From a virus (taxonomy: Duplodnaviria > Heunggongvirae > Uroviricota > Caudoviricetes), in the IMG/VR virus record IMGVR_UViG_2671180473_000015: a stretch of DNA of 35,845 nucleotides. One strand, 5' to 3'. The notes beneath the pieces were generated by a model. The model was given only the letters and a program-made list of their open reading frames with translations, ran no database searches and was not told where the DNA came from. The position numbers and the translations under genes were made by a program. Positions 2,539-35,502 of the stretch are shown here, in pieces. The stretch's first letter is position 1. Each line of letters begins with the position of its first letter.

Positions 2539-3363
2539 TCAGGCGGTGAAAGTACCAATAAAGGTTTCTACTTTGCTGTCTTTGAATTTCTCAACAAGCA
2601 GATCACGAAATTCGTTAGCCATTTCTTCCTGTACCGCTTCCAGCTGAATAATGCGCAGAACCAGTACAGGACGATCGCCAGTGATAATGCTGAGGCGTAA
2701 TTTAAACGGACGTTCTTTCAGACCTTCAAACGGAACGCATTTAAATTCAAATGCCACTGGCATAATGTCTTTGGTCTTCGCTTCGACAGACTCCATCAGG
2801 GAGCGTTTGCCGCTGAAGTCATTATCTTCAAAATCAGCGGTCTGGTTCGCTTCAATTGTGATTTTACGGATCGCCGCAGCCGCTTTGGTTGCCTGAATGG
2901 CGTCACCATTAGCATCAAAGCCCACAAGGTAGTCGGCCCAGTCTTCAATCCATTCTGCCAGTGACTTCTGGGAGTTACGCTCGCCATTAACAGACAACAG
3001 AGCAGAGAACGGAGCTGTCTTTTTCAGTTTGAGAGTGGCGGTGTTATCTGCGTGACCTGGTTCATCAATAGTACCCAGGTTAAGAACACTGACGGCACGC
3101 ATATTATCAGCATCGATAAAGCAGCGGGTGCCTTCATCTGCAAGATCTTTAGAATAACGAGTAAAGTCATCGATGCTGGCAGTGGAAAGCGCACCACGGA
3201 AACGGAAACGATTTAAATTTAATTTTTCCAGATCATGAATGCGGAAATTCTCAGGCAATGCCACAGCATCGGCACCAATCTTACTGATAATTTCATTAAC
3301 ACCCTGAGCAGAAATAAGGGCATGGATTTGATTAATTGCGGTTGCGTCTAAGTTCTGAGACAT
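2539..3363 (-). CDS. DUF2303 / YfdQ-like prophage protein
   Basis: 274-aa ORF. Length and sequence character match what I recall of the YfdQ (DUF2303) family of E. coli CPS-53-type prophages. Follows the YfdP-like gene in the same leftward operon. Confidence 0.55.
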
Positions 3364-3428
3364 AATAAGTCCTCACTATATAAAGATATTCAGTGATGAG
3401 ATAAATAATCGGTTAATTAAGAACGATA

Positions 3429-3791
3429 TTAATGACCTGCTGCGCGGAGTTTTCCGTCAGGTTCACCGGCAAGAGTCAGTAATTGTCCCTGGTCTTCCTG
3501 CAGAATAGTCAGGCGACCACCGCGATTGACATACATCGGCGTTTCGGTGGTGTCTTCTTCGGAAATTTTCCCGCGGTTAGTCGGGCGAACATATGAGAGT
3601 TTGTGTTTGATTTTCACACGGTTCTCATCAAATGGTTCGATTTCCAGGTTGAGTGAGACCTTACCTTTGGTTTTCGTGTTCATCACACCGGAAGCGACTT
3701 CACTGAGAACTGCGCCGATTTTGGTTTCAAATACGCCGCCGTCCAGCTCCCCAATAAATGCCTGCACATCAGTACTGCGTTCGCTAGCCAT
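3429..3791 (-). CDS. conserved prophage early-left protein (YfdP-like), about 120 aa
   Basis: The track ORF 3429..3977 starts with TTG far upstream. An internal ATG at 3791 (MASERSTDVQAFIGELDGG...) has a good SD (AGGAGC, 6-7 nt upstream) and gives a 120-aa product. Confidence 0.55.
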   Translation of the reverse strand: MASERSTDVQAFIGELDGGVFETKIGAVLSEVASGVMNTKTKGKVSLNLEIEPFDENRVKIKHKLSYVRPTNRGKISEEDTTETPMYVNRGGRLTILQEDQGQLLTLAGEPDGKLRAAGH

Positions 3792-3840
3792 TTTGCTGCT
3801 CCTAATCATATCGACCCTGCAAGGTCGGTTGGTTTCTCCA

Positions 3841-3927
3841 CAAAACAGAGAAGAACACCTGCGGTGGCAGCCGCCCGGATGGATTTGGTTATGAGCCCGT
3901 CGTCCGGTGATGCTCTTCTCTGTTTTG
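3841..3927 (-). repeat. 87-bp inverted repeat with perfect 14-bp arms (long RNA stem in the early-left leader)
   Basis: Arms CAAAACAGAGAAGA (3841-3854) and TCTTCTCTGTTTTG (3914-3927) are exact reverse complements. The 59-nt spacer contains further self-complementary GC-rich segments. Lies just upstream of the YfdP-like start on the transcribed (minus) strand. Confidence 0.6.
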
Positions 3928-3928
3928 T

Positions 3929-3978
3929 AAAAAGAGCGGTACCAGCCGGAAGCAAGTGTACAAACTGGTACCGCCAAA
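3929..3978 (-). ncRNA. DicF-like small RNA candidate ending in an intrinsic terminator
   Basis: Minus-strand sequence TTTGGCGGTACCAGTTT...CTGGTACCGCTCTTTTT: an 11-bp stem (GGCGGTACCAG / CTGGTACCGCT, one G-U) followed by a U-run. Its 5' half closely resembles the core of DicF (TTTGGCGGTATCAGTTT) as I recall it. Located in the early-left operon downstream of the repressor gene, as DicF is in Qin. The 5' end is not determinable. Confidence 0.4.
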
Positions 3979-4406
3979 GCAGTGGCTGTTGTGGTGACCG
4001 GTGCTGATCTCCGGCTTGCGGTTATTTCAGACTCTCACGGGCGTTTAATTGCCCCGCCGAACAGCTCTTTTCCGCATTAGCTGCAATGTCTTTCGCGCAT
4101 CAGCCTGCGCATTCACCACAACGCTGAGAGCACTTAGCCAGTTACGGCACCACACTTTGTCGCGGTTCCATAAATGTCCTCATCGTTGCACCCTGGTCTC
4201 TTCCCAGGCGTCAAACCGAATCGCCACGCTGGTTAGGCGTCTTATCAGCATCATCATTGACTTGCACATTCCGGCTACCTGGTTTGTTTGCCCGAGCAAG
4301 GAGTGGATTGTCCCCTTTAACGTCCCCAGACCGCTAACGACGCATGTGCCATACGCCGTGTTACAACCAAATTTTGTTTAATCTTGCCTGTGCTGTGTTT
4401 CTTTTA

Positions 4407-4439
4407 GATACATTATGTATCCCAAAGGTACATTGTCAA
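4407..4439 (-). promoter_or_regulatory. PL-like early-left promoter overlapped by two operator palindromes
   Basis: On the minus strand: perfect -35 TTGACA (plus 4434-4439), 16-nt spacer, -10 CATAAT (plus 4412-4417). Overlapping palindromes TGTATCCCAAAGGTACA (4416-4432) and GATACATTATGTATC (4407-4421) share half-sites with the operators next to the repressor gene. Confidence 0.6.
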
Positions 4440-4440
4440 G

Positions 4441-4466
4441 TATAAAAAAACCTGCCGAAGCAGGTT
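4441..4466 (-). terminator. rho-independent terminator immediately downstream of the repressor gene
   Basis: Stem AACCTGC / GCAGGTT (loop CGAA) followed on the minus strand by a 7-nt U-run. The repressor stop is at 4478-4480. Confidence 0.55.
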
Positions 4467-4477
4467 ATAAATATTGA

Positions 4478-5152
4478 TTAGGCCTTTATTATGTATCTTC
4501 TTGGTTTTCCTGAGAAAATCACTGTACCAATTATAGAGCAATTACCGTTAATCTTAATGTAAGGCTCAGGCCAGTTTGGGTTTAATGCTTTGAGATAACG
4601 CTGTGTTCCATCTTCTATCAACCGCTTGAAGGTGGTTTCGCCTGTATCGTGCATCAATGCAATAACGTCGTCACCGTGGCAGGCAGGGACTTCAGGATCA
4701 ACAAAAATCATGTCTCCCGGGCGGTACTCATCAATCATTGAATCACCAATCACCCGCAAGATATAAGTCATTTCGCCACAGGGTACAGGGCAGGGATAAG
4801 TTTCTGCTGTGCTCAAATCAACCTCAGAATAGCCAACTTCTTTCCATGCTCCGGCCTGTACCCATGATATGACAGGGACTAACGTTATTTGTTTGTTAGT
4901 GATTGAAACGTCAGGTTTTTTTGTGATGTTCGTTGTCTGGTGTTCTTGATCAAGCCATCCGACAGGCAGGTCGAAACATTTTTCGATGTGCCGTGCCATG
5001 CTGTCACCGATATTTTTAGTTGCACCATCTCCCATAAACCTGCTGGTCTGGGTTGGCTCGCGATCAATCATGGTGGCAAAGGAAGAATTCCCGCCAACAC
5101 CATCTCTCAGTTTTCTGGCGTTAGACCGCCGGATGTCATGGACTGTTTTCAT
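4478..5152 (-). CDS. CI-like prophage repressor (HTH domain plus S24 LexA-like autopeptidase domain)
   Basis: 224-aa ORF. C-terminal domain carries the GDSM Ser motif (LRVIGDSM) and a downstream Lys (TFKRL) typical of S24 self-cleaving repressors. Divergent from the cro-like gene, with operator palindromes between them. Confidence 0.85.
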   Translation of the reverse strand: MKTVHDIRRSNARKLRDGVGGNSSFATMIDREPTQTSRFMGDGATKNIGDSMARHIEKCFDLPVGWLDQEHQTTNITKKPDVSITNKQITLVPVISWVQAGAWKEVGYSEVDLSTAETYPCPVPCGEMTYILRVIGDSMIDEYRPGDMIFVDPEVPACHGDDVIALMHDTGETTFKRLIEDGTQRYLKALNPNWPEPYIKINGNCSIIGTVIFSGKPRRYIIKA

Positions 5153-5169
5153 AAAGAAATTAAAACCTT

Positions 5170-5236
5170 TGTACCGATAAGGTACAAGTATCTTGAAGGT
5201 TCATCTCAATCATGTAATATGTATACCGGAGGTACA
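5170..5236. promoter_or_regulatory. OR-like operator/promoter region (divergent PRM / PR)
   Basis: Two 17-bp palindromes: TGTACCGATAAGGTACA (5170-5186) and TGTATACCGGAGGTACA (5220-5236), consensus TGTAyM-N5-GGTACA. Candidate PR elements: -35 TTGAAG (5193-5198) and -10 TAATAT (5215-5220), the latter overlapped by the second operator. Repressor start is at 5152, cro-like start at 5243. Confidence 0.6.
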
Positions 5237-5242
5237 TATTGT

Positions 5243-5443
5243 ATGAAAGCGTATTGGGACTCTTTAACCAAAGAACAGCAGGGTGAGTTGGCCGGAAAAG
5301 TTGGCTCAACACCAGGCTACTTACGGCTGGTTTTCAATGGTTATAAAAAAGCCAGTTTTGTGCTGGCTAAAAAACTTGAGCAATGCACGTCAGGTGCAAT
5401 TACGAAATCTGACTTAAGACCGGATATCTATCCGAAAGATTAA
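5243..5443 (+). CDS. Cro-like small HTH repressor
   Basis: 66-aa ORF with SD GGAGGT about 9 nt upstream of the ATG. Divergent from the repressor gene. The track ORF 4940..5443 is an upstream extension across the operators and is rejected. Confidence 0.7.
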   Translation: MKAYWDSLTKEQQGELAGKVGSTPGYLRLVFNGYKKASFVLAKKLEQCTSGAITKSDLRPDIYPKD

Positions 5444-5474
5444 CAGAACACCTTCAATTTTTAACCACAGAACG

Positions 5475-6038
5475 ATGAGGCTAACCGTGGGTAAGCATCA
5501 CTGGAAAGTAGAAAAACAGCCTGAGTGGTACGTGAAAGCTGTCAGAAAAACTATCGCGGCGTTGCCGGGGGGTTACGCTGAAGCTGCTGAGTGGCTGGAT
5601 GTAACAGAGAACGCTTTATTCAACCGCCTTCGTGCAGATGGCGATCAGATTTTCCCGCTGGGATGGGCAATGATTTTACAGCGCGCGGCTGGCACTCACT
5701 ACATTGCGGATGCTGTCGCACAGTCTGCTGGTGGGGTGTTTGTATCGCTTCCTGAAATTGAGGAAGTAGAGAACGCCGATATAAACCAGCGCCTGCTGGA
5801 AGTCATCGAACAGATCGGGAGTTACTCAAAGCAGATTCGTTCGGCAATCGAAGATGGGGTAGTGGAGCCACACGAGCAGACAGCAATTAATGATGAGTTG
5901 TATCTGTCAATTTCGAAGCTCCAGGAGCATGCAGCACTGGTCTACAAAATCTTTTGCGCTCCAGAAAAGAGTGACGCCCGCGAGTGTGCAGCTCCGGGCG
6001 TCGTGGCGTTTTGTGTCTGTGGAGAAACTAACGCATGA
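5475..6038 (+). CDS. early regulatory protein at the cII position (CII/YdaT-like, family uncertain)
   Basis: 187-aa ORF directly downstream of cro. Stop overlaps the next start (ATGA). Family assignment is from position and weak recollection only. Confidence 0.4.
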   Translation: MRLTVGKHHWKVEKQPEWYVKAVRKTIAALPGGYAEAAEWLDVTENALFNRLRADGDQIFPLGWAMILQRAAGTHYIADAVAQSAGGVFVSLPEIEEVENADINQRLLEVIEQIGSYSKQIRSAIEDGVVEPHEQTAINDELYLSISKLQEHAALVYKIFCAPEKSDARECAAPGVVAFCVCGETNA

Positions 6039-6871
6039 ACAGTTTAACGGCAAATAACCGTTTGTCGCAACAGCTGGTGGTCAGCGTCGCTGAACACCTG
6101 TTGTTACGGCATGAATGCAGATTACCAAATCACCTGGCTGTAAGTAACCACAGAGAACTTTACCTGACTGTGGGGGGCGAGTTGTGCAGGAACTTAACCG
6201 CTGGTTTCGTGACGGAAGAGGACTTTATGTTCATGTTATTCGTTGGGAGCCAGAAACACAGCGCGTTATCTATCTTCGCAAAGACTACCCGCATGAGTGC
6301 TTTAGTCCTTTGTGGAAATTCAGGCGTGATTTTGTTGAGTGTGAAGGACCACCAGCACATTGATTCTGCCATTCCGGGACGTTACACTGTTCAGGCACCT
6401 TATAAAGCGGGTGCCGGGATTGGCGTCCTGGAATTGATCAAGGCGATATATGACGCGCCAGCGTCTTTTTTATCGTCCGCATTTGCTCACATCAAAGTTA
6501 TGGTGGGCTGGGCGGGGGCATCGAAAGATGCGCCGGTTTCCTTGATCACCGGTTACGCCAACCCCGTTCAGTTCACCACCAGCGAAATTGGCGTTTCCGG
6601 TGGTGGAAGTATTTCACCGATCAAGGAGGCTGCCATCATGGCTACTGTCCCAGCCCTCACTCGTCTGAATGATGAAGACTTACATAAACTCAGTTATGTA
6701 ACAACTGCACTACGTGCTCTGCGCAAGGTAACTCTTTCGGATCCGCAGGCACATCAGGTTCTGGTAGAAACCCTTCTTAACTTGCAAGCTGAACGTATTC
6801 GTCTGGCGGATAAGGCTAATTTTCATATTCACCGTCTCCTGAATATCAGCGGAGGGCATCGTCATGCTTAA
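6035..6871 (+). CDS. hypothetical protein (gene structure uncertain)
   Basis: 278-codon open frame with SD GGAG upstream of the ATG at 6035, translationally coupled at both ends. No family recognised. An alternative 59-aa ORF in another frame (6184..6363) starts just after a G6 homopolymer, so a frameshift or overlapping genes cannot be excluded. Confidence 0.35.
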   Translation: MNSLTANNRLSQQLVVSVAEHLLLRHECRLPNHLAVSNHRELYLTVGGELCRNLTAGFVTEEDFMFMLFVGSQKHSALSIFAKTTRMSALVLCGNSGVILLSVKDHQHIDSAIPGRYTVQAPYKAGAGIGVLELIKAIYDAPASFLSSAFAHIKVMVGWAGASKDAPVSLITGYANPVQFTTSEIGVSGGGSISPIKEAAIMATVPALTRLNDEDLHKLSYVTTALRALRKVTLSDPQAHQVLVETLLNLQAERIRLADKANFHIHRLLNISGGHRHA

Positions 6872-7100
6872 TCCGTTGATCCTCAATATTTGCCGTTTGC
6901 TTCAGCGTAAAAAAATATCAATTCCTACAGTTGGGCAGTGGTACACCACGCCTGCAGGGCATGTTCTACGTGTTAGCCTGGTTGACCGTGAATGCCAGAA
7001 GGTGATTTGTGAACCGCTGGGCCGTAATTACCGCGTCAGTATGCCGCTTATAGCCTTTCGCTCCGGAAAAAACATGAAGCATCTCGGAGGTGCAGCATGA
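6864..7100 (+). CDS. small hypothetical protein (78 aa)
   Basis: ATG with upstream GGAGGG SD. Start overlaps the upstream stop and its stop overlaps the O-like start (ATGA), i.e. translational coupling within the early-right operon. Confidence 0.4.
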   Translation: MLNPLILNICRLLQRKKISIPTVGQWYTTPAGHVLRVSLVDRECQKVICEPLGRNYRVSMPLIAFRSGKNMKHLGGAA

Positions 7101-7915
7101 GTATGGAGCTGATGGTTAAAGCGATGAAAATTCGAGTGGGTAATCCATTGCGAAAACTGGTTCTGATCAAGCTGGCTGATAATGCCAGCGATCAGGGTGA
7201 GTGCTGGCCCAGCTACCAGCATATTGCTGACCAGTGCGAAATTAGCAAACGTTCTGTGATGAATCATATTGCGGCCCTTTGTGAGTCCGGGCTGGTAAAA
7301 AAAGTCACCCGGAAAGGTGAAAAAGGTAACTCAAGTAATATCTATCTCCTTCATCTGGATGGTGCAGGAGATTCACTAGGGGGTAGTGCAAATAATTCAC
7401 TATCTGGTGCAGCAAATTCACCAGGTAGTGCAGGAGTTGCACCAGGGGGTAGTGCAGGAGATTCACCCAGAACCAGTCACTCTTTTGAACCAGTCAAAGA
7501 ACCAGTCAATGAACCAATAGCTGTTGGTGCATCAGTTGATGAGTCCGTGCGAGTTCGTTCAAACCGACCGGAATACTCTCCGGAGTTTGAGCAGGCATGG
7601 CTGGCATATCCCAAACGTGCTGGTGGCAATTCAAAATCTGCAGCCTTCAAAGCCTGGAAAGCCCGTTTGAATGAGGGAGTAAACCCCGAAACCATGCTGG
7701 AAGGTGTGAAACGCTACGCGGGATGGGTATCTGCGATGGGTAACAGCGGCACACAATTTGTGAAACAGGCTGTCACGTTCTTTGGTCCGGATCGTCATTT
7801 CGAAGAATTCTGGGAAGTTCCTGCGGTATCTGCAGCCAGACGCGAGGACCCGTACTTCAAAGCCAGTTACGACAACGTGGACTACAGCCAGATCCCGGCA
7901 GGATTCAGGGGGTGA
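7097..7915 (+). CDS. replication initiator, lambda O-like (N-terminal winged-HTH replisome organiser)
   Basis: 272-aa ORF. N-terminus (KLVLIKLADNASDQGECWPSYQHIADQCEISKRSVMNHIAAL) is the classic phage replication-initiator HTH. A Gly/Ser-rich linker is encoded by an internal iteron array, as in lambda O. Confidence 0.7.
   Translation: MSMELMVKAMKIRVGNPLRKLVLIKLADNASDQGECWPSYQHIADQCEISKRSVMNHIAALCESGLVKKVTRKGEKGNSSNIYLLHLDGAGDSLGGSANNSLSGAANSPGSAGVAPGGSAGDSPRTSHSFEPVKEPVNEPIAVGASVDESVRVRSNRPEYSPEFEQAWLAYPKRAGGNSKSAAFKAWKARLNEGVNPETMLEGVKRYAGWVSAMGNSGTQFVKQAVTFFGPDRHFEEFWEVPAVSAARREDPYFKASYDNVDYSQIPAGFRG
7361..7508 (+). repeat. iteron array (candidate replication origin) inside the O-like gene
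   Basis: Five direct repeats of about 19 bp (consensus GGTAGTGCAGGAGATTCAC) at roughly 7361, 7382, 7406, 7424 and 7448, followed by three copies of AACCAGTCA at 7471, 7488 and 7500. Confidence 0.55.
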
Positions 7916-8406
7916 TCATGAGTCTTTTGAATGAAGTTCAGAAATTCATTGAAGCCCATCCGGGGTGTACTTCCGGAGACATTGCGGATGCTTTTGCAGG
8001 TTACTCACGGCAGCGCGTTCTGCAGTCAGCAAGCAAGTTACGTCAGAGTGGGCGTGTGGCTCACCGTTATGAAGGAGATACACGCAGACATTTCCCACGC
8101 CTGACTGAGAGAGCGCAGGAGCCGGAACCACAACCAGTTCGTGAAACCAGACCTGTGCGCAATTTCTATGTCGGCACTAACGATCCCCGGGTGATTTTGT
8201 GCCTGACCCGCCAGGCGGAAGAACTGGAGTCCAGGGGCTTATACCGTCGTGCTGCAACGGTGTGGATGGCGGCATTCCGTGAAAGCCACTCCCAGCCAGA
8301 ACGAAACAATTTTCTGGCGCGTCGTGAGCGGTGCTTACGGAAAAGCAGCAAGCGCGCTGCATCGGGTGAAGAGTGGTATCTGTCAGGGAATTACGTGGGG
8401 GCTTAA
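7912..8406 (+). CDS. winged-helix protein with PerC/ANR-like C-terminal region (putative regulator)
   Basis: 164-aa ORF. C-terminal AEELESRGLYRRAATVWMAAF...NFLARRERCL resembles the PerC motif (LEEAGYWRRAAECW...RRKQC) from memory. Occupies the position where lambda has P. Confidence 0.45.
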   Translation: MIMSLLNEVQKFIEAHPGCTSGDIADAFAGYSRQRVLQSASKLRQSGRVAHRYEGDTRRHFPRLTERAQEPEPQPVRETRPVRNFYVGTNDPRVILCLTRQAEELESRGLYRRAATVWMAAFRESHSQPERNNFLARRERCLRKSSKRAASGEEWYLSGNYVGA

Positions 8407-9059
8407 TGAGTAATAAATATTGCCAGGCGCTGGTGGAGCTGCGGAACAAACCAGCCCATGAACTGAAGGAAGTGGGCGATCAGTGGCGCACGCCGGATAA
8501 CATTTTCTGGGGAATTAACACCCTGTTTGGCCCGTTTGTTCTGGATCTGTTCACTGATGGTGATAACGCCAAATGTGCCGCTTATTACACTGCGGAAGAC
8601 AACGCGCTGGCGCATGACTGGTCTGAACGTCTTGCGGAGCTTAAAGGTGCTGCCTTTGGTAATCCCCCGTACAGCCGCGCCAGTCAGCATGAAGGGCAAT
8701 ACATCACCGGCATGCGTTACATCATGAAACATGCCAGTGCCATGCGTGATAAGGGCGGACGCTATGTTTTCCTGATCAAAGCTGCCACCAGCGAAGTGTG
8801 GTGGCCGGAAGATGCAGATCATATTGCTTTTATTCGCGGGCGTATTGGTTTTGAACTGCCTGCCTGGTTTATCCCGAAGGACGAGAAGCAGGTGCCGACA
8901 GGCGCTTTCTTCGCTGGTGCTATTGCTGTTTTCGACAAGACCTGGAAGGGACCGGCAATCAGCTACATCGGGCGCGATGAACTTGAGGCATGTGGTGAGG
9001 CGTTTCTGGCGCAGGTTCGCCAGCAGGCGGAAAAACTGGTCAGGGAGATGGCGGCATGA
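8406..9059 (+). CDS. phage Dam-family DNA N6-adenine methyltransferase
   Basis: 217-aa product from the ATG at 8406. NPPY catalytic motif (AFGNPPYSR) and overall similarity to phage Dam methylases (PF05869-like) as I recall them. No adjacent restriction endonuclease. Confidence 0.8.
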   Translation: MSNKYCQALVELRNKPAHELKEVGDQWRTPDNIFWGINTLFGPFVLDLFTDGDNAKCAAYYTAEDNALAHDWSERLAELKGAAFGNPPYSRASQHEGQYITGMRYIMKHASAMRDKGGRYVFLIKAATSEVWWPEDADHIAFIRGRIGFELPAWFIPKDEKQVPTGAFFAGAIAVFDKTWKGPAISYIGRDELEACGEAFLAQVRQQAEKLVREMAA

Positions 9060-9382
9060 CGACGTTAACTCAATGCCAGCAGCAGGTGCTGGATATGCTG
9101 ATTTCTTACCAGAAAGAACGTGGCTTCCCGCCAACCAATCAGGAGGTGGCAACCATGCTGGGATACCGTTCAGTGAATGCAGCGGTGGAACATCTTCGCG
9201 CACTGGAGAAAAAAGGCGTCATCACGATAAAGCGTGGCATGGCCCGGGGTATCACTCTTCATACCGCGGTGAAGGACGACGACAGCGAGGCGGTCGGGAT
9301 TATCCGCTCACTGCTTGCCGGTGAGGAAAACGCCAGGCTGCGTGCAACCCACTGGTTACATGAGAGAGGCCTGAAAGTATGA
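9056..9382 (+). CDS. LexA N-terminal DNA-binding-domain protein lacking the S24 peptidase domain
   Basis: 108-aa ORF. LTQCQQQVLDMLISYQKERGFPPTNQEVATMLGYRSVNAAVEHLRALEKKGVITI aligns closely with the E. coli LexA N-terminus ([55 protein letters not shown]). The protein ends before any Ser-Lys peptidase domain. Confidence 0.7.
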   Translation: MTTLTQCQQQVLDMLISYQKERGFPPTNQEVATMLGYRSVNAAVEHLRALEKKGVITIKRGMARGITLHTAVKDDDSEAVGIIRSLLAGEENARLRATHWLHERGLKV

Positions 9383-9768
9383 AGCTGATCCTGCCTTTCC
9401 CGCCCAGCGTGAACACGTACTGGCGACACCCCAACAAAGGGGCATTTGCTGGTAAGAGCCTGATAAGCGCGGCGGGGCGAAAATTTCAGAGCGCGGCGTG
9501 CGCAGCAATAGTTGAGCAGTTACGTCGTCTGCCAAAACCAACGTCGGCACCTGCTTCAGTGGAGATCGTGTTGTTTCCTCCGGATAACCGGATCCGCGAT
9601 CTGGACAACTATAACAAGGCGCTGTTTGACGCCCTGACCCACGCGGGGGTGTGGGAAGACGACAGCCAGGTGAAAAGAATGCTGGTGGAGTGGGGACCGG
9701 TTATCCAGAAAGGGAAGGTCGAGATCACTATCAGTAAGTATGAGAAACCGGCGGGTGCAGCCGCCTGA
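9379..9768 (+). CDS. rusA: RusA-family Holliday junction resolvase
   Basis: 129-aa ORF starting MKLILPFPPSVNTYW, the RusA signature, with conserved acidic residues (DLDNYNKALFDAL). Confidence 0.85.
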   Translation: MKLILPFPPSVNTYWRHPNKGAFAGKSLISAAGRKFQSAACAAIVEQLRRLPKPTSAPASVEIVLFPPDNRIRDLDNYNKALFDALTHAGVWEDDSQVKRMLVEWGPVIQKGKVEITISKYEKPAGAAA

Positions 9769-9787
9769 TCAAGAGGAGAAACGAAGT

Positions 9788-10597
9788 ATGAATAATCTGA
9801 TGGTCATTGATGGTATTGAAGTTCGTCGTGATGCTTATGGGCGTTACAGCCTGAACGATCTGCACAGGGCAGCCGGGGGAGAACAAAAAAACCGCCCGAA
9901 ATACTGGCTCTCCAATAAGCAAACCTGTGAATTGATTGAACAACTTTTCACCGAGGGTGGAATTCCGCCTCTGGAACAAAATCAACCAGTTAGCGTCATT
10001 AATGGCGGAAATAACCAGGGGACGTATGTCTGCAAAGAACTGGTGTATGCCTATGCAATGTGGATCAGCCCGTCATTCCATCTGAAGGTGATCCGTACTT
10101 TCGACATGGTAACCAGCGCACCGGAAAAATTATCCGGACAGGCTGCTGACAAGATGCAGGCTGGCGTGATCCTGCTGGACTTTATGCGCCGGGAATTAAA
10201 TCTGTCTAACTCATCAGTGCTTGGAGCCTGTCAGAAGCTTCAGGAGGCTGTTGGCTTACCGAATCTGGCACCGCGCTATGCCATTGATGCTCCTGCTGAC
10301 GCGCCTGATGGCTCAAGTCGCCCCACGCTGTCGCTGAGTGCACTGCTGAAGCAGTATGGTATCCGCCTGACGGCTAATCAGGCATATCACCAGATGGTGA
10401 AGCTGGGGATCGTTGAACAACGCGAACGATACAGCCGTACCGCGATTAACAACATCAAAAAATTCTGGTCGCTGACGGCGAAAGGCTGCATGTTCGGCAA
10501 GAACATCACCAGTCCTGCAAATCCGCGCGAGACGCAGCCGCATTTCTTCGAATCCCGATTCCCTGAGCTGTTAAAGCTGCTCGATACCGTTCATTGA
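9788..10597 (+). CDS. KilA-N domain protein (antirepressor-like)
   Basis: 269-aa product from the ATG at 9788 (SD GAGGAG upstream). N-terminal KilA-N domain (VIDGIEVRRDAYGRYSLNDLHRAAGGEQKNRPKYWLSNKQTCELIEQL...YAMWISPSFHLKVIRTF). Confidence 0.7.
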   Translation: MNNLMVIDGIEVRRDAYGRYSLNDLHRAAGGEQKNRPKYWLSNKQTCELIEQLFTEGGIPPLEQNQPVSVINGGNNQGTYVCKELVYAYAMWISPSFHLKVIRTFDMVTSAPEKLSGQAADKMQAGVILLDFMRRELNLSNSSVLGACQKLQEAVGLPNLAPRYAIDAPADAPDGSSRPTLSLSALLKQYGIRLTANQAYHQMVKLGIVEQRERYSRTAINNIKKFWSLTAKGCMFGKNITSPANPRETQPHFFESRFPELLKLLDTVH

Positions 10598-10598
10598 G

Positions 10599-11594
10599 GT
10601 GACCGTGAGAGCACTACTGACCCCTGAAATTGCCCCGCGTATGGGGATCGTATTGTTCAGGCCAGGTTCAGAGCTGATGCCCCTGTTTATGCAGGGGCGT
10701 GTTCTGCTGGAGCCTGAGCCGGAACGTTATTCATCTTTCGCCAGTGGTGCCGTTCCGGCGGCATCACAACCGCTGGCGGATGATCCTGCCGTTCGGGCCG
10801 TGTTCCGCAATGAGGCAGTGATCCGTCGTGCTGGTGGCGTGGAATGTCTTGAAAGCTGGTTACTTCGTGAAAAAGGCTGCCAGTGGCCTCATTCCGACTG
10901 GCACAGCGAGAACATGACCACAATGCGACACGCTCCGGGCGCAATCCGTCTGTGCTGGCACTGCGATAACCAGCTGCGCGATCAGTTCACGGAACGGCTG
11001 GAATCAATGGCAACGGATAACTGTGCCCGCTGGGTGTTGTCTGTTGTGCGTCGGGATCTCGGTTTTGATGATAGTCACGTTGTGACAATGCCGGAACTGT
11101 GCTGGTGGCTGATTCGTAATGACCTGGCGGATGCCTTACCGGAAAGTGCAGCCCGTAAGGCACTGAGATTACCAAAGCCTGTTGTGCCGTCTGTCACCCG
11201 GGAAAGTGACCTTGTGCCTTCGGTTCCTGCCACCAGCATCATCCAGGATAAGGCAAAAAAGGTGCTGGCGCTGAAAGTGGATCCGGAGTCGCCGGAGTCT
11301 TTTATGTTACGCCCAAAACGCCGCCGCTGGGTTAATGAAAAGTACACGCGCTGGGTTAAGACACAGCCGTGTGCATGTTGTGGAAAGCCTGCTGATGATC
11401 CCCACCACCTGATAGGCCACGGTCAGGGTGGAATGGGTACAAAAGCGCATGACCTCTTTGTGTTGCCTTTGTGCAGAAAGCATCACGACGAGCTGCATGC
11501 GGATACCGTGGCATTTGAAGAGAAGTATGGCTCCCAGCTGGAGCTGATATTTCGTTTTATCGATCGTGCGCTGGCAATTGGCGTATTGGCGTAA
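10599..11594 (+). CDS. DUF968 / YdfU-like protein with C-terminal Cys/His zinc-binding (HNH-like) motif
   Basis: 331-aa ORF with GTG start at 10599 (alternative GTG at 10605). C-terminus CACCGKPADDPHHLIGHGQGG...CRKHHDELH. Family assigned from memory. Confidence 0.55.
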   Translation: MTVRALLTPEIAPRMGIVLFRPGSELMPLFMQGRVLLEPEPERYSSFASGAVPAASQPLADDPAVRAVFRNEAVIRRAGGVECLESWLLREKGCQWPHSDWHSENMTTMRHAPGAIRLCWHCDNQLRDQFTERLESMATDNCARWVLSVVRRDLGFDDSHVVTMPELCWWLIRNDLADALPESAARKALRLPKPVVPSVTRESDLVPSVPATSIIQDKAKKVLALKVDPESPESFMLRPKRRRWVNEKYTRWVKTQPCACCGKPADDPHHLIGHGQGGMGTKAHDLFVLPLCRKHHDELHADTVAFEEKYGSQLELIFRFIDRALAIGVLA

Positions 11595-11607
11595 GTGGAG
11601 AACGAGC

Positions 11608-12360
11608 ATGAACCTTGAAGCCTTACCAAAATATTACTCCCCAAAATCTCCAAAATTGAGCGATGACGCACCGGCGACAGGCTCAGGTGGTTTAACGATT
11701 ACGGATGTGATGGCTGCGCAGGGGATGGTGCAGTCGAAAGCACCGCTTGGGTTTGCCTTATTCCTGGCAAAAGTTGGTGTTCAGGATCCTCAATTTGCGA
11801 TTGAAGGTCTGCTCAATTACGCGATGGCACTGGATAACCCGACATTGAACAAATTGAGTGAAGAAACCCGGTTACAGATCATCCCTTACCTTGTGAATTT
11901 TGCCTTTGCTGATTATTCCAGGTCTGCGGCAAGTAAGGCTCGCTGTGAGCATTGTGCTGGTACTGGATTTCATAATGTATTGCGCGAAGTGGTGAAACAC
12001 TCCAGAAGCGGGGAATCTGTTATCAAGGAAGAGTGGGTGAAGGAACTATGTCAGCATTGCCATGGTAAGGGAGAAGTCAGCACAGCGTGCAGAGGGTGTA
12101 AGGGTAAAGGTATTGTCCTGGATGAAAAAAGAACCCGGCTTCATGGTGTGCCTGTTTATAAGATTTGTGGGCGTTGCAATGGCAACCGGTTTAGCCGTTT
12201 ACCAACCACACTGGCGCGGCATCATGTCCAGAAACTGGTACCGGACCTGACGGATTATCAGTGGTACAAAGGATATGCAGACGTTATTAATAAACTGGTT
12301 ACAAAGTGCTGGCAGGAAGAAGCGTATGCTGAATCGCAATTGAGAAAAGTGACAAGATAG
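11608..12360 (+). CDS. Q: late-gene antitermination protein Q
   Basis: 250-aa product from the ATG at 11608 (SD GGAG 7 nt upstream). Paired CxxC zinc-finger motifs (CEHCAGTGF, CQHCHGKGE, CRGCKGKG, CGRCNGNRF) typical of Q antiterminators. Immediately upstream of a promoter-plus-terminator unit. Confidence 0.8.
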   Translation: MNLEALPKYYSPKSPKLSDDAPATGSGGLTITDVMAAQGMVQSKAPLGFALFLAKVGVQDPQFAIEGLLNYAMALDNPTLNKLSEETRLQIIPYLVNFAFADYSRSAASKARCEHCAGTGFHNVLREVVKHSRSGESVIKEEWVKELCQHCHGKGEVSTACRGCKGKGIVLDEKRTRLHGVPVYKICGRCNGNRFSRLPTTLARHHVQKLVPDLTDYQWYKGYADVINKLVTKCWQEEAYAESQLRKVTR

Positions 12361-12391
12361 ATAATTTTCGCCGAAGATGTCGACGTGATAC

Positions 12392-12420
12392 TTGCATTTT
12401 TCAAAAAATATGGATAAGAT
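12392..12420 (+). promoter_or_regulatory. PR'-like late promoter (candidate Q-utilisation region)
   Basis: -35 TTGCAT (12392-12397), 17-nt spacer, -10 TAAGAT (12415-12420). Lies between the Q stop and the tR'-like terminator, as in lambda. Confidence 0.45.
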
Positions 12421-12463
12421 TTTCTCAACGATGGGCCTTGTATGTCTACCGTTGGTAAATGTC

Positions 12464-12490
12464 AAAAACCCGCCGCTGAGCGGGTTTTTT
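12464..12490 (+). terminator. tR'-like rho-independent terminator
   Basis: AAAAACCCGCCGCTGAGCGGGTTTTTTGTGCC: GC stem plus T-run about 45 nt downstream of the candidate late promoter. Confidence 0.7.
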
Positions 12491-12639
12491 GTGCCTGATG
12501 TCTCATGAAACTATGAAATGGATTGGTGCGTTAAACATTTTTTCTTATTATCTTTTAGATTTTGGAGAGATGGTTAACGTCTGTATTCCAGAAACTCGAT
12601 GGTTATTTAATAAATTAGTTTCAATGATGCTTCTAGGTT

Positions 12640-13065
12640 ATGACTGTAATGAAAAAGGTATTAATAGCAGCGATAGGTTTTTGTTTAGTTGGTTGTGCAG
12701 GTATGAAATTACCTGAGTATTCGCAAGTTAAAGCAAGTCCGTATTATACAGATTGCCGTGCGTTTGCCATGGATGTTTATAAAAATGATGGATACAGCAA
12801 AATTGCGAAAACTACTATCCTTAGCATGGATGATGTGAAAGCTAGATATATTGTGACAGGGTGTGTAGTTGCTATGGGGAAAAACACTGTAGAGGAAATC
12901 AAAGCTGATCTCTCTGCTAAAGGGAGTTCTTTTGGGCTTATCAGTGGAGCTTGTTCTAGTGCGGCATGTCGGGTTGATGTAGAGCAGCAAATGAACGCTT
13001 ATGTACTTGGTAGTTATTATGCTGCAAATAAAAAATTCCCGGATAAAATGAAAGCAGAGTTTTAA
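12640..13065 (+). CDS. lipoprotein encoded by an AT-rich moron between Q and the lysis genes
   Basis: 141-aa ORF. Signal peptide with lipobox (MKKVLIAAIGFCLVGCAG; Cys in LVGC). Several further Cys residues. The flanking region 12490-13140 is markedly AT-rich and bounded by two near-identical terminators. Confidence 0.65.
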   Translation: MTVMKKVLIAAIGFCLVGCAGMKLPEYSQVKASPYYTDCRAFAMDVYKNDGYSKIAKTTILSMDDVKARYIVTGCVVAMGKNTVEEIKADLSAKGSSFGLISGACSSAACRVDVEQQMNAYVLGSYYAANKKFPDKMKAEF

Positions 13066-13142
13066 GCAAACCTTGTTTTCGATTATATGTCGAAGATAAA
13101 TGTTAGTAACGGCATAATAAGTAAATATATAGCTGTGATAGC

Positions 13143-13168
13143 AACCCGCCACTGAGCGGGTTTTTTGT
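13143..13168 (+). terminator. second tR'-like terminator (near-duplicate of 12464-12490)
   Basis: CAACCCGCCACTGAGCGGGTTTTTTGTACCC: same stem and T-run as the terminator at 12464-12490 with two substitutions. Confidence 0.7.
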
Positions 13169-13288
13169 ACCCGTAAACTTGGTGCAGTACAGTAAACACG
13201 CTGGTGGTCGTGAATACTGACTTTTTATCTTGCTGGCTTTTTAGACAAGAGTTATTGGTATGTCATGTTAACCAGAAGGGAAAAAGAC

Positions 13289-13492
13289 ATGCTAAAACAG
13301 CAAGATATGACAGAAACCGCCGCCGCAGTCCTTCATTTCTTACCTGCTGACAAGTGGGTAACGCCACGCATGATGACGAGAACTACCGGAGTAAGCGAAG
13401 CCCGGTGCCAGTTAATACTGACTCAGTTAGTTCTGGCGGGTCTGGCGAAGGATAACGGCGGGTACGGGAATAAATTCAGACGCTGCCAGTAA
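13289..13492 (+). CDS. small hypothetical protein (possible winged-helix protein)
   Basis: 67-aa product from an ATG with an AAGGGA SD-like sequence upstream (track ORF 13265..13492). No recognised family. Directly upstream of the second methyltransferase gene. Confidence 0.35.
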   Translation: MLKQQDMTETAAAVLHFLPADKWVTPRMMTRTTGVSEARCQLILTQLVLAGLAKDNGGYGNKFRRCQ

Positions 13493-13642
13493 TGGCGGTT
13501 TCCTGCTGTGAAAATGGGCGGCTGGTGGGTGTTGGTAGCACCTGCCAGCCATTCGCTCATGCTTACTGGTCACAAGCGAACCACGGCCCACTGCTTTAGC
13601 GCAAAAGCAGAGTGAGCCTACCAGAGTTACGCTTACTGATCC

Positions 13643-14695
13643 ATGAAAAATACTGTAAAAATAAACAGTGTTGATTTAATCAACGCTGATTGCCTGCATT
13701 TTATTCAGTCCCTGCCTGATGATTCCATTGACCTGATTGTTACCGATCCGCCTTACTTCAAGGTGAAACCCAACGGTTGGGACAATCAGTGGAAAGGGGA
13801 CGAAGATTACCTTAAGTGGCTGGACCACTGTCTGGCCCAGTTCTGGCGGGTGTTGAAACCTGCCGGAAGCCTTTACCTGTTCTGTGGGCATCGCCTGGCA
13901 TCTGATATTGAGATCATGATGCGTGAACGTTTCAACGTGCTTAACCATATCATCTGGGCGAAGCCGTCCGGACGTTGGAATGGGTGTAATAAAGAAAGTC
14001 TGCGCGCATATTTTCCTGCCACAGAGCGCGTTCTGTTTGCTGAACATTACCAGGGGCCATATCGCGGCAAAAGTGACGGCTATGCGGCAAAAGAAAGGGA
14101 ACTCAAACAGCACATAATGGCACCGCTGATATCGTATTTCAGGGATGCTCGTGCCGAACTGGGTATAACGGCAAAACAAATTGCCGAAGCCACAGGTAAG
14201 AAAAATATGGTTTCCCACTGGTTTGGTGCCAGTCAGTGGCAGTTGCCGAATGAGGCTGACTATCGGAAGTTACAGGCACTGTTTTCCCGTATAGCGGCAG
14301 AGAAGTTTCAGGAACAACAACTGGAACAACCACACCACCAGCTGGTGGCATCTTATGATTCACTGAATCGTAAATATTCTGAATTGCTGGATGAGTTTAA
14401 ATCTCTCCGGCGCTATTTCTCCGTATCAGTCTCCGTGCCTTATACCGATGTCTGGATGCATAAACCCGTTCAGTTCTACCCGGGGAAACATCCGTGTGAG
14501 AAACCGGCGGATATGCTCAGGCAAATAATCAATGCCAGTAGTCGACCAGGTGATCTGGTTGCTGATTTTTTTATGGGATCCGGTTCCACAATAAAAGCAG
14601 CAATGGCGCTGGGGCGTCGGGCCTTAGGTGTTGAGCTTGAGTCAGAGCGGTTTAATCAGACAGTGAAAGAGATAAACGAGCTGGTGGGGAAATAA
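13643..14695 (+). CDS. DNA methyltransferase, N4/N6 beta-class (DPPY motif before FxGxG motif)
   Basis: 350-aa ORF. Catalytic motif IVTDPPYF near the N-terminus and SAM-binding DFFMGSGST near the C-terminus (PF01555-type order). No cognate endonuclease in the window. Confidence 0.85.
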
Positions 14696-14697
14696 TC

Positions 14698-14725
14698 TGG
14701 TGGCCACGTCAGGTGGCCTTTTTAT
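14698..14725 (+). terminator. rho-independent terminator after the methyltransferase gene
   Basis: Stem GGCCAC / GTGGCC with loop GTCAG, followed by TTTTT. Confidence 0.5.
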
Positions 14726-14762
14726 TTCCATTACACAGCACCCGCATCTGCGAGGTGGGGTT

Positions 14763-14900
14763 ATGAAATCCATGGATAAGTTAACAACGGGTGTCGCCTA
14801 TGGCACCTCAGCAGGTAGTGCCGGGTACTGGTTTTTACAGTTGCTCGATAAAGTCACGCCCTCACAGTGGGCGGCAATAGGTGTGCTGGGTAGTCTGGTA
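14763..14900 (+). CDS. S: S21-type pinholin (class II holin), 3' end lost in an N-run
   Basis: ATG at 14763 with [57 protein letters not shown] matches phage 21 S21 ([46 protein letters not shown]) from memory, including the dual-start Met1/Met4 motif. The true stop lies within the N-run (expected near 14978 if 71 aa). Confidence 0.8.
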
Positions 14901-15140
14901 NNNNNNNNNNNNNNNNNNNNNNNNNNNNNNNNNNNNNNNNNNNNNNNNNNNNNNNNNNNNNNNNNNNNNNNNNNNNNNNNNNNNNNNNNNNNNNNNNNNN
15001 NNNNNNNNNNNNNNNNNNNNNNNNNNNNNNNNNNNNNNNNNNNNNNNNNNNNNNNNNNNNNNNNNNNNNNNNNNNNNNNNNNNNNNNNNNNNNNNNNNNN
15101 NNNNNNNNNNNNNNNNNNNNNNNNNNNNNNNNNNNNNNNN
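14901..15140. other. N-run (240 nt) - assembly gap or masked sequence
   Basis: Continuous n characters; removes the holin 3' end and the holin-endolysin junction. Confidence 0.95.
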
Positions 15141-15207
15141 TTAAGTCACTGACCGGAACAGATAAACCTGTCCGTGGGCAGAAACCGATAAATCCTGATA
15201 AATATCC

Positions 15208-15741
15208 ATGAACGCAAAAATCAGATACGGCCTGTCGGCTGCCGTTCTGGCACTGATTGCCGTCGGTGCGCCCGCGCCTGATATTCTCGACCAGTTTCTG
15301 GATGAAAAAGAAGGTAACCACACAACGGCATACCGCGATGGGTCCGGCATCTGGACCATCTGTCGGGGTGCCACGATGGTGGATGGAAAACCCGTTTTTC
15401 CCGGTATGAAACTGTCGAAGGAAAAATGCGACCAGGTCAACGCCATTGAGCGTGATAAGGCGCTGGCATGGGTGGAGCGCAATATTAAAGTACCACTGAC
15501 CGAGCCACAAAAAGCGGGTATCGCGTCATTTTGTCCCTATAACATTGGCCCCGGTAAGTGTTTTCCGTCGACGTTTTATAAGCGGCTGAATGCTGGTGAT
15601 CGTAAAGGTGCATGCGAGGCGATTCGCTGGTGGATAAAAGATGGTGGGCGCGATTGCCGCATACGTTCAAATAACTGCTATGGACAGGTTATTCGTCGTG
15701 ACCAGGAAAGCGCATTAGCCTGTTGGGGGATAGATCAGTGA
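15208..15741 (+). CDS. R: SAR endolysin (signal-arrest-release lysozyme, R21-like)
   Basis: 177-aa ORF. N-terminal weakly hydrophobic SAR segment ([18 protein letters not shown]) followed by E-x8-D-x5-T catalytic spacing ([16 protein letters not shown]). Pairs functionally with the pinholin. Confidence 0.85.
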
Positions 15742-16205
15742 GCAGAGTCGCCGCGATTATTTATGCTCTGGTTATCTGCATCATCGTCTGCCTGTCGTGG
15801 GCGGTCAATCATTACCGTGATAACGCCATCGCCTACAAAGAACAGCGTGATAAAAAAGTCAGTGAGCTGAAGCAGGCGACCGCCACCATTACTGACATGC
15901 AGCAACGCCAGCGTGCTGCTGATGTACTCGATGCTAAATACACGAAGGAGTTGGCTGATGCGAAAGCTGAAAATGATGCTCTTCGGCGCAAGCTTGATAA
16001 TGGTGGTCGGGTGCTCGTCAAAGGAAAATGCCCTGTGCCATCCTCAGCCGAAACCTCCAGCGCCTCCGGCATGGGCAATGATGCCACCGTCGAACTCTCT
16101 CCAGTTGCTGGACGAAACGTTCTCGGTATCCGGGACGGAATCATCAGAGACCAGACAGCACTGAGAACGCTTCAGGAATATATCAGGACGCAATGCCTTC
16201 GATGA
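15738..16205 (+). CDS. Rz: Rz i-spanin
   Basis: GTG start overlapping the endolysin stop (GTGA). N-terminal TM segment ([17 protein letters not shown]) and coiled-coil-like periplasmic domain. Contains Rz1 in the +1 frame. Confidence 0.75.
15958..16164 (+). CDS. Rz1: Rz1 o-spanin (lipoprotein embedded in Rz)
   Basis: ATG at 15958 with strong SD AAGGAG 7 nt upstream. Signal peptide and lipobox ([21 protein letters not shown]) and a Pro-rich mature region ([16 protein letters not shown]). Fully inside Rz in a different frame. Confidence 0.75.
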
Positions 16206-16379
16206 TAGCGATAATTTTACTCATCATCCTTCACATTTGGCTCTGTAGACAGGGTGGTGATCACTTCTGGAGTGAATCCAGATTAAACATCTCATTGCTG
16301 ATGCTTGAAGTTGAGCATCTGGCGCGCGGTAAGGGGCTGCGTTGAAATAAGAGCCAGTCATTAAAAATACCTGGATTTA

Positions 16380-16405
16380 GCCTCGCATTCGCGGGGCTTT
16401 TTATT
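16380..16405 (+). terminator. candidate rho-independent terminator downstream of the lysis cassette
   Basis: Stem GCCTCGC / GCGGGGC (one G-U) with loop ATTC followed by TTTTT. A second perfect 8-bp hairpin (AGCCACTC / GAGTGGCT) follows at about 16417-16438. Confidence 0.4.
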
Positions 16406-16889
16406 GCCATTACAAAAGCCACTCCCTACAGAGTGGCTTTGATAATGGCTTATACCCTACACGGGATAACTTAACTGATATCCCTTTTAACGGATAAAGG
16501 TATTCAAGCCTGACACATCATGCGCTGTATCGTCGCCGTATTCCCGTATTAACAGAGACCGTAGCCCGACGGGGAACTCCTTCTGCGAGAGTGTGCGGGA
16601 ATAATCAAAAACGATGCACACCGGGTTTTTACCGCGTTTATGGTTCGCGGGTTTGTCCCTCATGCTCGCCAGTCCTGTGCGGGGGTGGAAGAAACAGGAT
16701 ACTCACACAGATTCTTGTGGGCACGATGCTATTCCTTTCTGGATTATCCCGATGCCATTCATGCAAGGCGCTGTATCAGACGTTCGTCATGTCTGTCAGG
16801 CTGACGGGTCCTCCCGGTGGAGTGGCCTGCCACGGGGCGGGAGCGTCGCGGAAAAAGGCTAGTTTTTGAAATTTCATTCGTCATCACCA

Positions 16890-16917
16890 CCACTGTAATA
16901 GATTGATATTACAGTGG
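16890..16917. repeat. perfect 11-bp inverted repeat upstream of the terminase genes
   Basis: CCACTGTAATA-GATTGA-TATTACAGTGG followed by a T-rich tract. About 100 bp upstream of the terminase small-subunit start. Could be a terminator or a protein-binding/packaging-related site. Confidence 0.5.
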
Positions 16918-17020
16918 TTTTGTTTTTATGGTGTCGATTTTGATTGTTTTTTGTTCATCACTAACACCGTTTGCCTAAAGTTGTTCGCGAGATGCATGTT
17001 TAAAACATTCTGGAGCGGGT

Positions 17021-31956: not shown

Positions 31957-35502
<3,546 letters not shown>

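Follow-up and report, generated by a model that had tools for sequence, protein, structure and literature searches.

The viral DNA described here is a stretch of 35,845 nucleotides (nt) from a member of the Caudoviricetes (IMG/VR record IMGVR_UViG_2671180473_000015), called the window below, in which the gene at 7097-7915 encodes a putative phage replication initiator and contains an array of five repeats (iterons) followed by an element of 35 base pairs (bp). From comparison of sequences, we consider it probable that positions 7362-7503 form the cis-acting core of the prophage's replication origin, placed inside the gene of its own initiator, and we give the explanation as a whole the same standing. 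Dimers of the initiator's N-terminal domain would bind the five sites and build a nucleoprotein complex resembling the lambda O-some; this complex would destabilize flanking DNA, most likely at the 35-bp core, with the less stable left flank at 7310-7360 as the alternative; and the C-terminal domain would bring in the replicative helicase, for which the likeliest candidate is DnaB of the host, handed over by the host's DnaC. The peptide encoded by repeats and core would be a disordered tether whose sequence is largely dictated by the DNA element. An earlier note on this DNA had proposed a lambda-like arrangement with iterons inside an O-like gene, and its testable sequence-level predictions agree with the layout, covariation, and mosaics reported below, so that this interpretation is supported at the level of sequence. 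Iterons as such are unsurprising and a textbook idea; the new details are repeats that are independent of reading frame, a code linking recognition helix to binding site, and the invariant core. The parts of the locus are as follows.

7097-7915, + strand: initiator gene, 272 amino acids (aa); counterpart of SfV orf39, ST64B sb42, and the helix-turn-helix (HTH) protein of Shiga toxin (Stx)-phage "Eru6" modules
7097-7354, + strand: coding part of the N-terminal winged-helix DNA-binding domain, aa 1-86
Initiator aa 47-58: recognition helix around CEISKRSVMNHI
7310-7360, no strand: left flank of the array, with the least stable duplex in its vicinity, G+C fraction 0.38; alternative candidate for the unwinding site
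7362-7376, no strand: iteron 1, GTGCAGGAGATTCAC
7386-7400, no strand: iteron 2, GTGCAAATAATTCAC
7407-7421, no strand: iteron 3, GTGCAGCAAATTCAC
7428-7442, no strand: iteron 4, GTGCAGGAGTTGCAC, a perfect dyad (GTGCA-GGAGT-TGCAC)
7452-7466, no strand: iteron 5, GTGCAGGAGATTCAC; dyad center at 7459, 10 bp ahead of the core
7469-7503, no strand: invariant core AGAACCAGTCACTCTTTTGAACCAGTCAAAGAACC, two GAACCAGTCA direct repeats 17 bp apart plus GAACC; encodes RTSHSFEPVKEP
7499-7520, no strand: third GAACCAGTCA and a degenerate fourth (GAACCAATAG); not shared by all of the family
7505-7912, + strand: coding part of the C-terminal half ("class 1" domain), helices at aa 162-229; presumed contact for helicase loading

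The array consists of five copies of GTGCA-N5-TKCAC at 7362-7466, all in one 105-bp stretch inside the open reading frame (ORF) 7097-7915. The conserved 15-mer GTGCANNNNNTKCAC starts at 7362, 7386, 7407, 7428, and 7452, giving spacings of 24, 21, 21, and 24 bp; the earlier note had described the same copies as repeats of about 19 bp, followed by three of another kind, and its 19-mers start 4 nt earlier (7358, 7382, 7403, 7424, and 7448). A pattern search bore out those counts, coordinates, and descriptions. The exact pattern occurs in the array and nowhere else in the 35,845 bases. When one mismatch is allowed, there are 17 matches on both strands, compared with 6.5 +/- 3 in shuffled sequence (0 of 100 shuffles reach 17), and the seven one-mismatch matches outside the array are at chance level. 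Each repeat is also an imperfect palindrome, copy 4 being perfect, a dyad symmetry that the earlier description did not include. The repeats encode aa 89-124, a Gly/Ser/Ala-rich segment between the winged HTH (wHTH) and the C-terminal domain that overlaps the disordered part of the AlphaFold model, confirming the proposal that they code for a Gly/Ser-rich interdomain linker. Downstream, GAACCAGTCA occurs exactly three times (7470, 7487, and 7499, spanning 7470-7508) and is found nowhere else in the window; all three copies noted previously are therefore present, but only the first two, together with GAACC, are universal in the family.

What the repeats do is indicated by their covariation with the recognition helix. 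Genomes and IMG/VR contigs supplied 167 distinct combinations of helix and linker, of which 162 fall into four main classes. Helices of the CEIS(K/R)RSV type go with GTGnA-N5-TnCAC, CEI(G/A/S)RSTVK helices with GGGCnG-N3-CTGCCC, CECSKSAVR helices with TGCC-N7-RGCA, and CEIDRSTVR helices with a unit containing GTAGGC; in Pseudomonas relatives the site is the perfect palindrome GTGCAGCAGCTGCAC. Helix class predicts the half-site in 161 of these 162 combinations (GTG..CAC, 92/92; GGKC..GMCC, 22/23; GTAGGC, 17/17; TGCC-N7-RGCA, 30/30), counts that are not phylogenetically independent. Two metagenomic mosaics provide a check that does not depend on the counts. Identity of L001 and L002 to the window is 68% over the N-domain and 45-50% over the array, and it reaches 99% in the segment that runs from the core to the stop codon. 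The array of L001 is made of six CTRTGC-N9-GCAYAG units, and the linker they encode is not Gly/Ser-rich (e.g., PVSSESIAPCAVKKHS). Because N-domain and array have been exchanged jointly, the two make up one specificity cassette. Taken together, these sequence comparisons indicate that the repeats are very probably the binding sites of the initiator protein.

Comparison of relatives indicates that it is the DNA of the array, rather than the peptide, that is under selection. The sample comprised 80 loci taken from the genomes of members of Enterobacterales, Pseudomonas, Aeromonas, Shewanella, Marinomonas, Xenorhabdus, and other genera, as well as the two mosaics. Absence of the repeats from homologous initiator genes had been named by the earlier note as an argument against its proposal; homologues from many genera all carry such repeats, and nearly all loci have two to seven in the linker (mode 4; 83 loci). 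Counted over about 200 related loci, the linker repeats are dyad-symmetric, number two to seven, and recur every 21-24 bp. Over the 83 loci, spacings are 21 bp in 96 cases, 22 bp in 37, 23 bp in 30, and 24 bp in 90, and the final spacing is 24 bp in 71 loci. In 39 of the 83, a compensating pair of 23 and 22 bp shifts the reading frame of one copy, so that the peptide GVVQEIHQG replaces GSAGDSP without loss of the DNA motif or of its two-turn phasing. Since copies are retained in another frame, the DNA and not the peptide is conserved, and an explanation at the level of the protein cannot account for these frame-independent repeats.

Close homologues differ in length only within the array, which holds about one to nine units. 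Near-identical alleles of Escherichia coli and Shigella (P0001, P0003, P0018, P0021, P0028, and P0042) vary only in repeat number, in a series of approximately one unit (242 aa), two (250 aa), five (the window), seven, eight, and nine (302 aa); P0018 has one additional EPVK unit, which is an additional copy of GAACCAGTCA. The array may be prone to insertions and deletions. Alleles from Erwinia rhapontici (L031), Pseudomonas bharatica (L035), and Enterobacter mori (L008) are frameshifted in or just after the array or core, with the core read as PEPVTLLNQ, and are probably pseudogenes or assembly errors.

In its codons, the element that follows the array is more strongly constrained than the wHTH domain, and this holds across the gammaproteobacterial hosts sampled. 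In 75 non-redundant loci, the codons of the element are AGA in 71/71, ACC in 55/55, AGT in 74/74, CAC in 64/64, TCT in 69/69, GAA in 73/73, CCA in 61/65, GTC in 69/72, and GAA in 70/70 cases. Mean codon entropy is 0.24 bit in the core versus 1.30 bit at 36 equally conserved wHTH residues of the same genes, where, unlike in the core, many synonymous codons are used; the rare changes in the core are often non-synonymous (ACC to ATC and CAC to AAC). Judged by these codons, the core is under selection at the nucleotide level. Its sequence is independent of both the iteron class and the C-terminal domain, and it is restricted to positions behind this N-domain in 113/113 evaluable viral contigs. It starts 10 bp from the dyad center of the last repeat in 57 of 59 loci, a number that includes three with a 3-nt register error. 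In hosts of high and low G+C content, the core is the G+C minimum within +/-400 nt (0.43-0.46 vs. about 0.6).

We read the core as a second component of the putative origin, that is, as the place where DNA is opened or helicase loaded, or as a site for the conserved part of the initiator. More specifically, and only tentatively, we suggest that it is an origin element of specific sequence, undescribed so far, which hundreds of phages of Enterobacterales, Pseudomonas, Aeromonas, Shewanella, Marinomonas, and other genera have in common; that its reader would be the conserved part of this initiator family, not the variable helix, and would probably recognize it in the form of unwound single strands or as the point of helicase entry; and that the C-domain would let loader-less phages take over host DnaC-DnaB directly. 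By eye, neither a DnaA box (TTATCCACA) nor the integration host factor consensus (WATCAANNNNTTR) is seen on either strand of the core, for which no formal scan was made. There is no GATC within 7191-7789, a site looked for because the phage encodes a Dam methylase, and a scan of 4300-8600 for promoters and terminators gave results at chance level, with nothing inside the putative origin.

A competing account of the core is that it is not a part of an origin at all and has been kept either as a recombination joint for the shuffling of N- and C-terminal modules or as a signal at the mRNA level. In favor of this account, the junction of L001 and L002 with the window falls exactly at the core, at least seven unrelated C-domain classes stand behind the same N-domain, repeats, and core, and the reading frame of the core is constant in all intact genes. 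However, evolvability is unlikely to fix nine codons across Pseudomonas, Shewanella, Aeromonas, and enterobacteria, and the fixed 10-bp distance and the G+C trough point to a partnership with the iterons at the DNA level. As for RNA, structure is absent: the predicted fold of 7340-7540 is not unusual (z = -0.57, with the core unpaired), and a permissive Rfam search gave no credible match, returning only a chance hit to mir-875 (E 0.07; 22 bits vs. a gathering threshold of 84). We regard this account as unlikely; further, a role as a joint and a role in the origin are compatible rather than mutually exclusive.

The protein itself can be placed among known initiators by its N-terminal half. It belongs to HTH_36 (PF13730; 1.8e-11, 44.1 bits vs. 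a gathering cut-off of 25) and to PHROG 270, with phrog_270 "replication initiation protein" matching over the full length (aa 3-271; 2.4e-88). The AlphaFold model contains a confident winged helix (aa 1-86), a disordered segment (aa 91-157), and a helical C-domain of intermediate predicted local distance difference test values (AF2 pLDDT 60-79). At the DNA level, the gene is 98%-99% identical to SfV orf39 ("replication protein") and to its counterparts in Stx2c-converting phages, mEp460, Ayreon, 2H10, and PhiR55_1. Similarity to lambda O does not extend to family membership: PF04492 (Phage_rep_O) gives no match to the window initiator at E <= 0.01 (lambda O itself, 5.8e-36), hhalign against lambda O returns a probability of 1.3%, with no profile similarity, and the lambda O-type C-terminal, P-binding domain is not present, the class 1 C-domain being unrelated to it. 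A Pfam search also found no Rep_3-type domain in the window initiator. By these comparisons, the initiator is O-like in its predicted function and not by family.

What stands next to the initiator gene in relatives supports the protein's role as an initiator and bears on the choice of helicase. The following gene there encodes one of three proteins, namely a homologue of lambda P (PF06992, 1.6e-66), an ATPase of the IstB/DnaC-like kind, or the helicase DnaB (5e-75). Only the class-5 relatives (L016, L043, and L047) have lambda O's own C-terminal domain, matching Lambdavirus lambda with 40% identity and an E-value of 2e-16. Behind the window's own class 1 C-domain, the IstB/DnaC-like ATPase gene comes next in 23 of 28 loci, in 21 of which a DnaB gene then follows. 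The DnaC-like partner is missing from the window, L001, and L002, which are alleles of the E. coli type, and from L044, where the contig ends, and L034 has a lambda P gene in its place. In the window, the ORFs checked between 5475 and 9768 include no helicase or loader partner, and none of the early genes of the related phage PhiR55_1 is annotated as a helicase, loader, or primase. Thus, the partner gene that characterizes a lambda-type origin is found in the family and not in its "solo" member in the window. Enterobacteria reportedly have DnaC, whereas Pseudomonas uses DciA (Brezellec et al. 2016). Because no phage loader or helicase is found here and DnaC-like and DnaB genes stand beside the same C-domain in relatives, we infer that the helicase would be host DnaB, recruited via host DnaC.

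Two kinds of conserved downstream gene may extend this list of partners. A gene of ~268 aa lies directly downstream of the initiator in 21 class-2 loci (Pseudomonas, Vreelandella, and Zymobacter; e.g., L006:3893-4699), and one of ~162 aa in five Aeromonas loci (e.g., L061:3740-4228). Neither has a Pfam family; because they occupy the position of the lambda P, DnaC, or DnaB genes, both are candidates for unrecognized helicase loaders.

If the repeats bind their own N-domain, they could still do so for autoregulation, copy control, or another purpose unrelated to an origin, with replication starting elsewhere or depending mainly on recombination through RecBCD and Chi. The initiator is an HTH protein, and some records label its homologues as transcriptional regulators; the phage has neither loader nor helicase; and Chi sites (GCTGGTGG) are strongly enriched and oriented, as in the Chi-rich class of phages that have an O homologue only, with 13 on the + strand, all at 5727-17658, and five on the - strand, where about 0.55 per strand are expected (one lies inside the initiator gene, at 7619). 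Nevertheless, relatives of the gene hold the position of O before genes for lambda P, DnaC, or DnaB, or else are fused to the C-domain of lambda O, the fixed geometry and the invariant adjacent element exceed what an operator needs, the motif forms no second cluster in the window, and the iterons of lambda are its origin. We therefore judge such a role for the repeats to be quite improbable. Dismissed most readily is the idea that the repeats are a by-product of slippage in a low-complexity Gly/Ser linker with no function as DNA: disorder of the linker and the range of about one to nine repeats among near-identical E. coli alleles would suit it, but it is already contradicted by the copies conserved in another frame, other specificity classes encode quite different peptides, as in L001, and it is made scarcely credible by the dyad symmetry of the repeats, by a spacing that stays at two turns, and by how strictly they covary with the recognition helix.

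Several observations weigh against an origin at 7362-7503. The Chi enrichment means that recombination-dependent replication may carry much of the load. Two enterobacterial relatives keep DnaC and DnaB genes of their own despite the presence of host DnaC. The core, at 43% G+C, is only moderately A+T-rich, and in the window the least stable duplex near the array lies on the side opposite to it, the 40-mer at 7320-7359 (dG -46.1 kcal/mol) being at the 2nd percentile of the window and 7480-7519 at the 8th. In searches of Pfam and PDB, the window's C-domain, to which helicase loading would fall, had no relatives and no recognizable fold or family. Alleles with one or two repeats exist (P0042 and P0028, the latter of 250 aa and on 64 contigs), and the shared ancestry behind the covariation counts has been mentioned above. 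Finally, none of the phages with only an O homologue has been studied experimentally, and their replication is described as "not yet understood" (PMC12315714).

Around the locus, two further genes adjoin the initiator.

6864-7100, + strand: small upstream ORF, 78 aa, phrog_1153; its stop overlaps the initiator start codon (ATGA)
7912-8406, + strand: PerC/YfdN-like gene (PF06069, 7.7e-09), at the position of the relatives' loader or helicase; named from the PhiR55_1 annotation

The start overlap lies at 7097-7100, and the initiator stop in turn overlaps the start region of the PerC/YfdN-like gene at 7912-7921 (GTGATCATGA), which suggests translational coupling along the operon. Over 76% of its length, the first 25 kilobases (kb) of the window are ~98% identical to the lambda-like siphovirus PhiR55_1, a genome deposited as complete whose record gives E. 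coli C as the host. The order of the early-right operon is cro, CII-like, Rha/Ash, small ORF, initiator, YfdN/PerC, Dam, LexA-like, RusA, KilA-N, YdfU, and Q. Many phages that are otherwise 98% identical match the window only from 6933 onward, which places a mosaic boundary inside the small ORF upstream of the initiator. The Ash-family gene at 6035-6871 encodes 278 aa, compared with a Rha protein of 383 aa in PhiR55_1. The annotation of PhiR55_1 gives the names YfdQ, YfdP, and YfdN to window genes at 2539-3977 and 7912-8406; we take these names to be those of genes in CPS-53, a defective prophage of E. coli K-12 that may therefore hold remnants of the same module. Runs of N interrupt the lysis and tail regions of the window (14901-15140, 30118, 31564-31843, 32455-32681, and 34451-34666). 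An N-domain homologue with 60% identity over aa 1-85 is encoded by ten extrachromosomal "plasmids" of Arsenophonus nasoniae (H42-H51; 28-104 kb, most ~40 kb), all scored as non-mobilizable, and these may be phage-plasmids that use this type of initiator. A search for plasmids with this initiator as a typed replicon found only records of ~40 kb that resemble prophages or phage-plasmids.

Initiator-only phages make up about one-tenth of enterobacterial lambdoid phages. Serotype-converting phages of the SfV type are among them, and the Stx2c- and Stx2a-converting phages carry the same initiator gene. The proposed origin map, with five sites, a core at a fixed distance, and a candidate helicase-recruiting domain, makes O-only replication directly testable, and the helix sequence offers a rule by which origin specificity in these phages can be predicted, and with it probably their compatibility in replication. 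The locus is also a clear natural case of a DNA element that dictates the amino acids of a disordered linker, with repeats read in two frames, and such frame-independent repeats matter for annotation of these genes and for analyses of their evolutionary rates. In the searchable literature, which does not take in the SfV genome paper or the Weigel & Seitz review, we found no published account in which this family's repeats or core are described, and text searches for their sequences returned only unrelated primer matches.

Among known systems, the DnaD-like replisome organizers differ from the window. A match to DnaD_N (PF21984) falls below threshold (24.3 bits vs. a cut-off of 27), no C-terminal family is matched, and the signature of the DnaD C-terminus is not detectable in the window's C-domain; the resemblance of the wHTH to DnaD is one of fold only. 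DnaD, the organizer in Firmicutes and their phages, is not known to bind origins sequence-specifically at iterons of its own.

The closest counterparts by gene content are the O-only modules and the HTH_36 proteins of Eru5, Eru6, Eru8, Eru11, and Eru13 phages, which like the window have one O-like gene, lack a loader or helicase, and are Chi-rich. A survey of enterobacterial lambdoid phages found an O homologue only in 34 of 314, a Chi-rich class whose growth is aided by RecBCD/Chi-dependent recombination (Zheng, Casjens et al. 2025; PMC12315714). Eru6 is described as two genes next to cI, for a Rha/Ash protein and an HTH_36 protein, and nothing is known of the replication proteins of Eru phages (PMC8951638). 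Stx2a_WGPS2, the reference phage of Eru6, matches the window at 6933-8497 with 98.3% identity, the HTH_36 gene included; because the match starts at 6933, the Ash-family gene at 6035-6871 is not covered. Both papers (PMC12315714 and PMC8951638) deal with gene content only, and none of those searched places an origin, repeats, or core for this family.

Iteron plasmids (RK2 TrfA, F RepE, pPS10 RepA, and R6K pi) share with the window an array of ~20-bp repeats beside an element with short direct repeats. Their initiators also contact one strand of the unwinding element, and by analogy the two or three GAACCAGTCA units of the core could act like the repeats of a plasmid unwinding element. Plasmid iterons, however, are usually intergenic, non-palindromic, and bound by a monomeric WH1-WH2 Rep, whereas those of the window are dyad-symmetric and lie inside coding sequence.

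It is lambda that comes closest in layout. In lambda O, the Phage_rep_O domain (aa 22-115) is followed by four iterons at codons 117-145 with spacings of 20, 24, and 23 bp; in the window, the wHTH (aa 1-86) is followed by repeats at codons 89-124, again directly after the DNA-binding domain, and the mean repeat period is 22.5 bp, compared with 22.3 bp in lambda. The iterons that lie inside the gene differ from one another in lambda, P22, and L (bioRxiv 10.1101/2020.10.05.325894). The lambda set (phi80, 82, P22 gene 18, L gene 18, and 933W) and the window have in common four to six dyad-symmetric repeats in the interdomain linker that are specific to the N-domain and exchanged with it. By analogy, they would also share a distinct, less G+C-rich element 3' of the repeats and a C-domain coupled to loader or helicase. 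The window differs from lambda in having an HTH_36 N-domain without Phage_rep_O and no P, DnaC, or DnaB gene. Whereas the lambda origin contains an A+T-rich tract of ~40 bp, the window has in its place the 35-bp element of 43% G+C, which is invariant across iteron classes and hosts.

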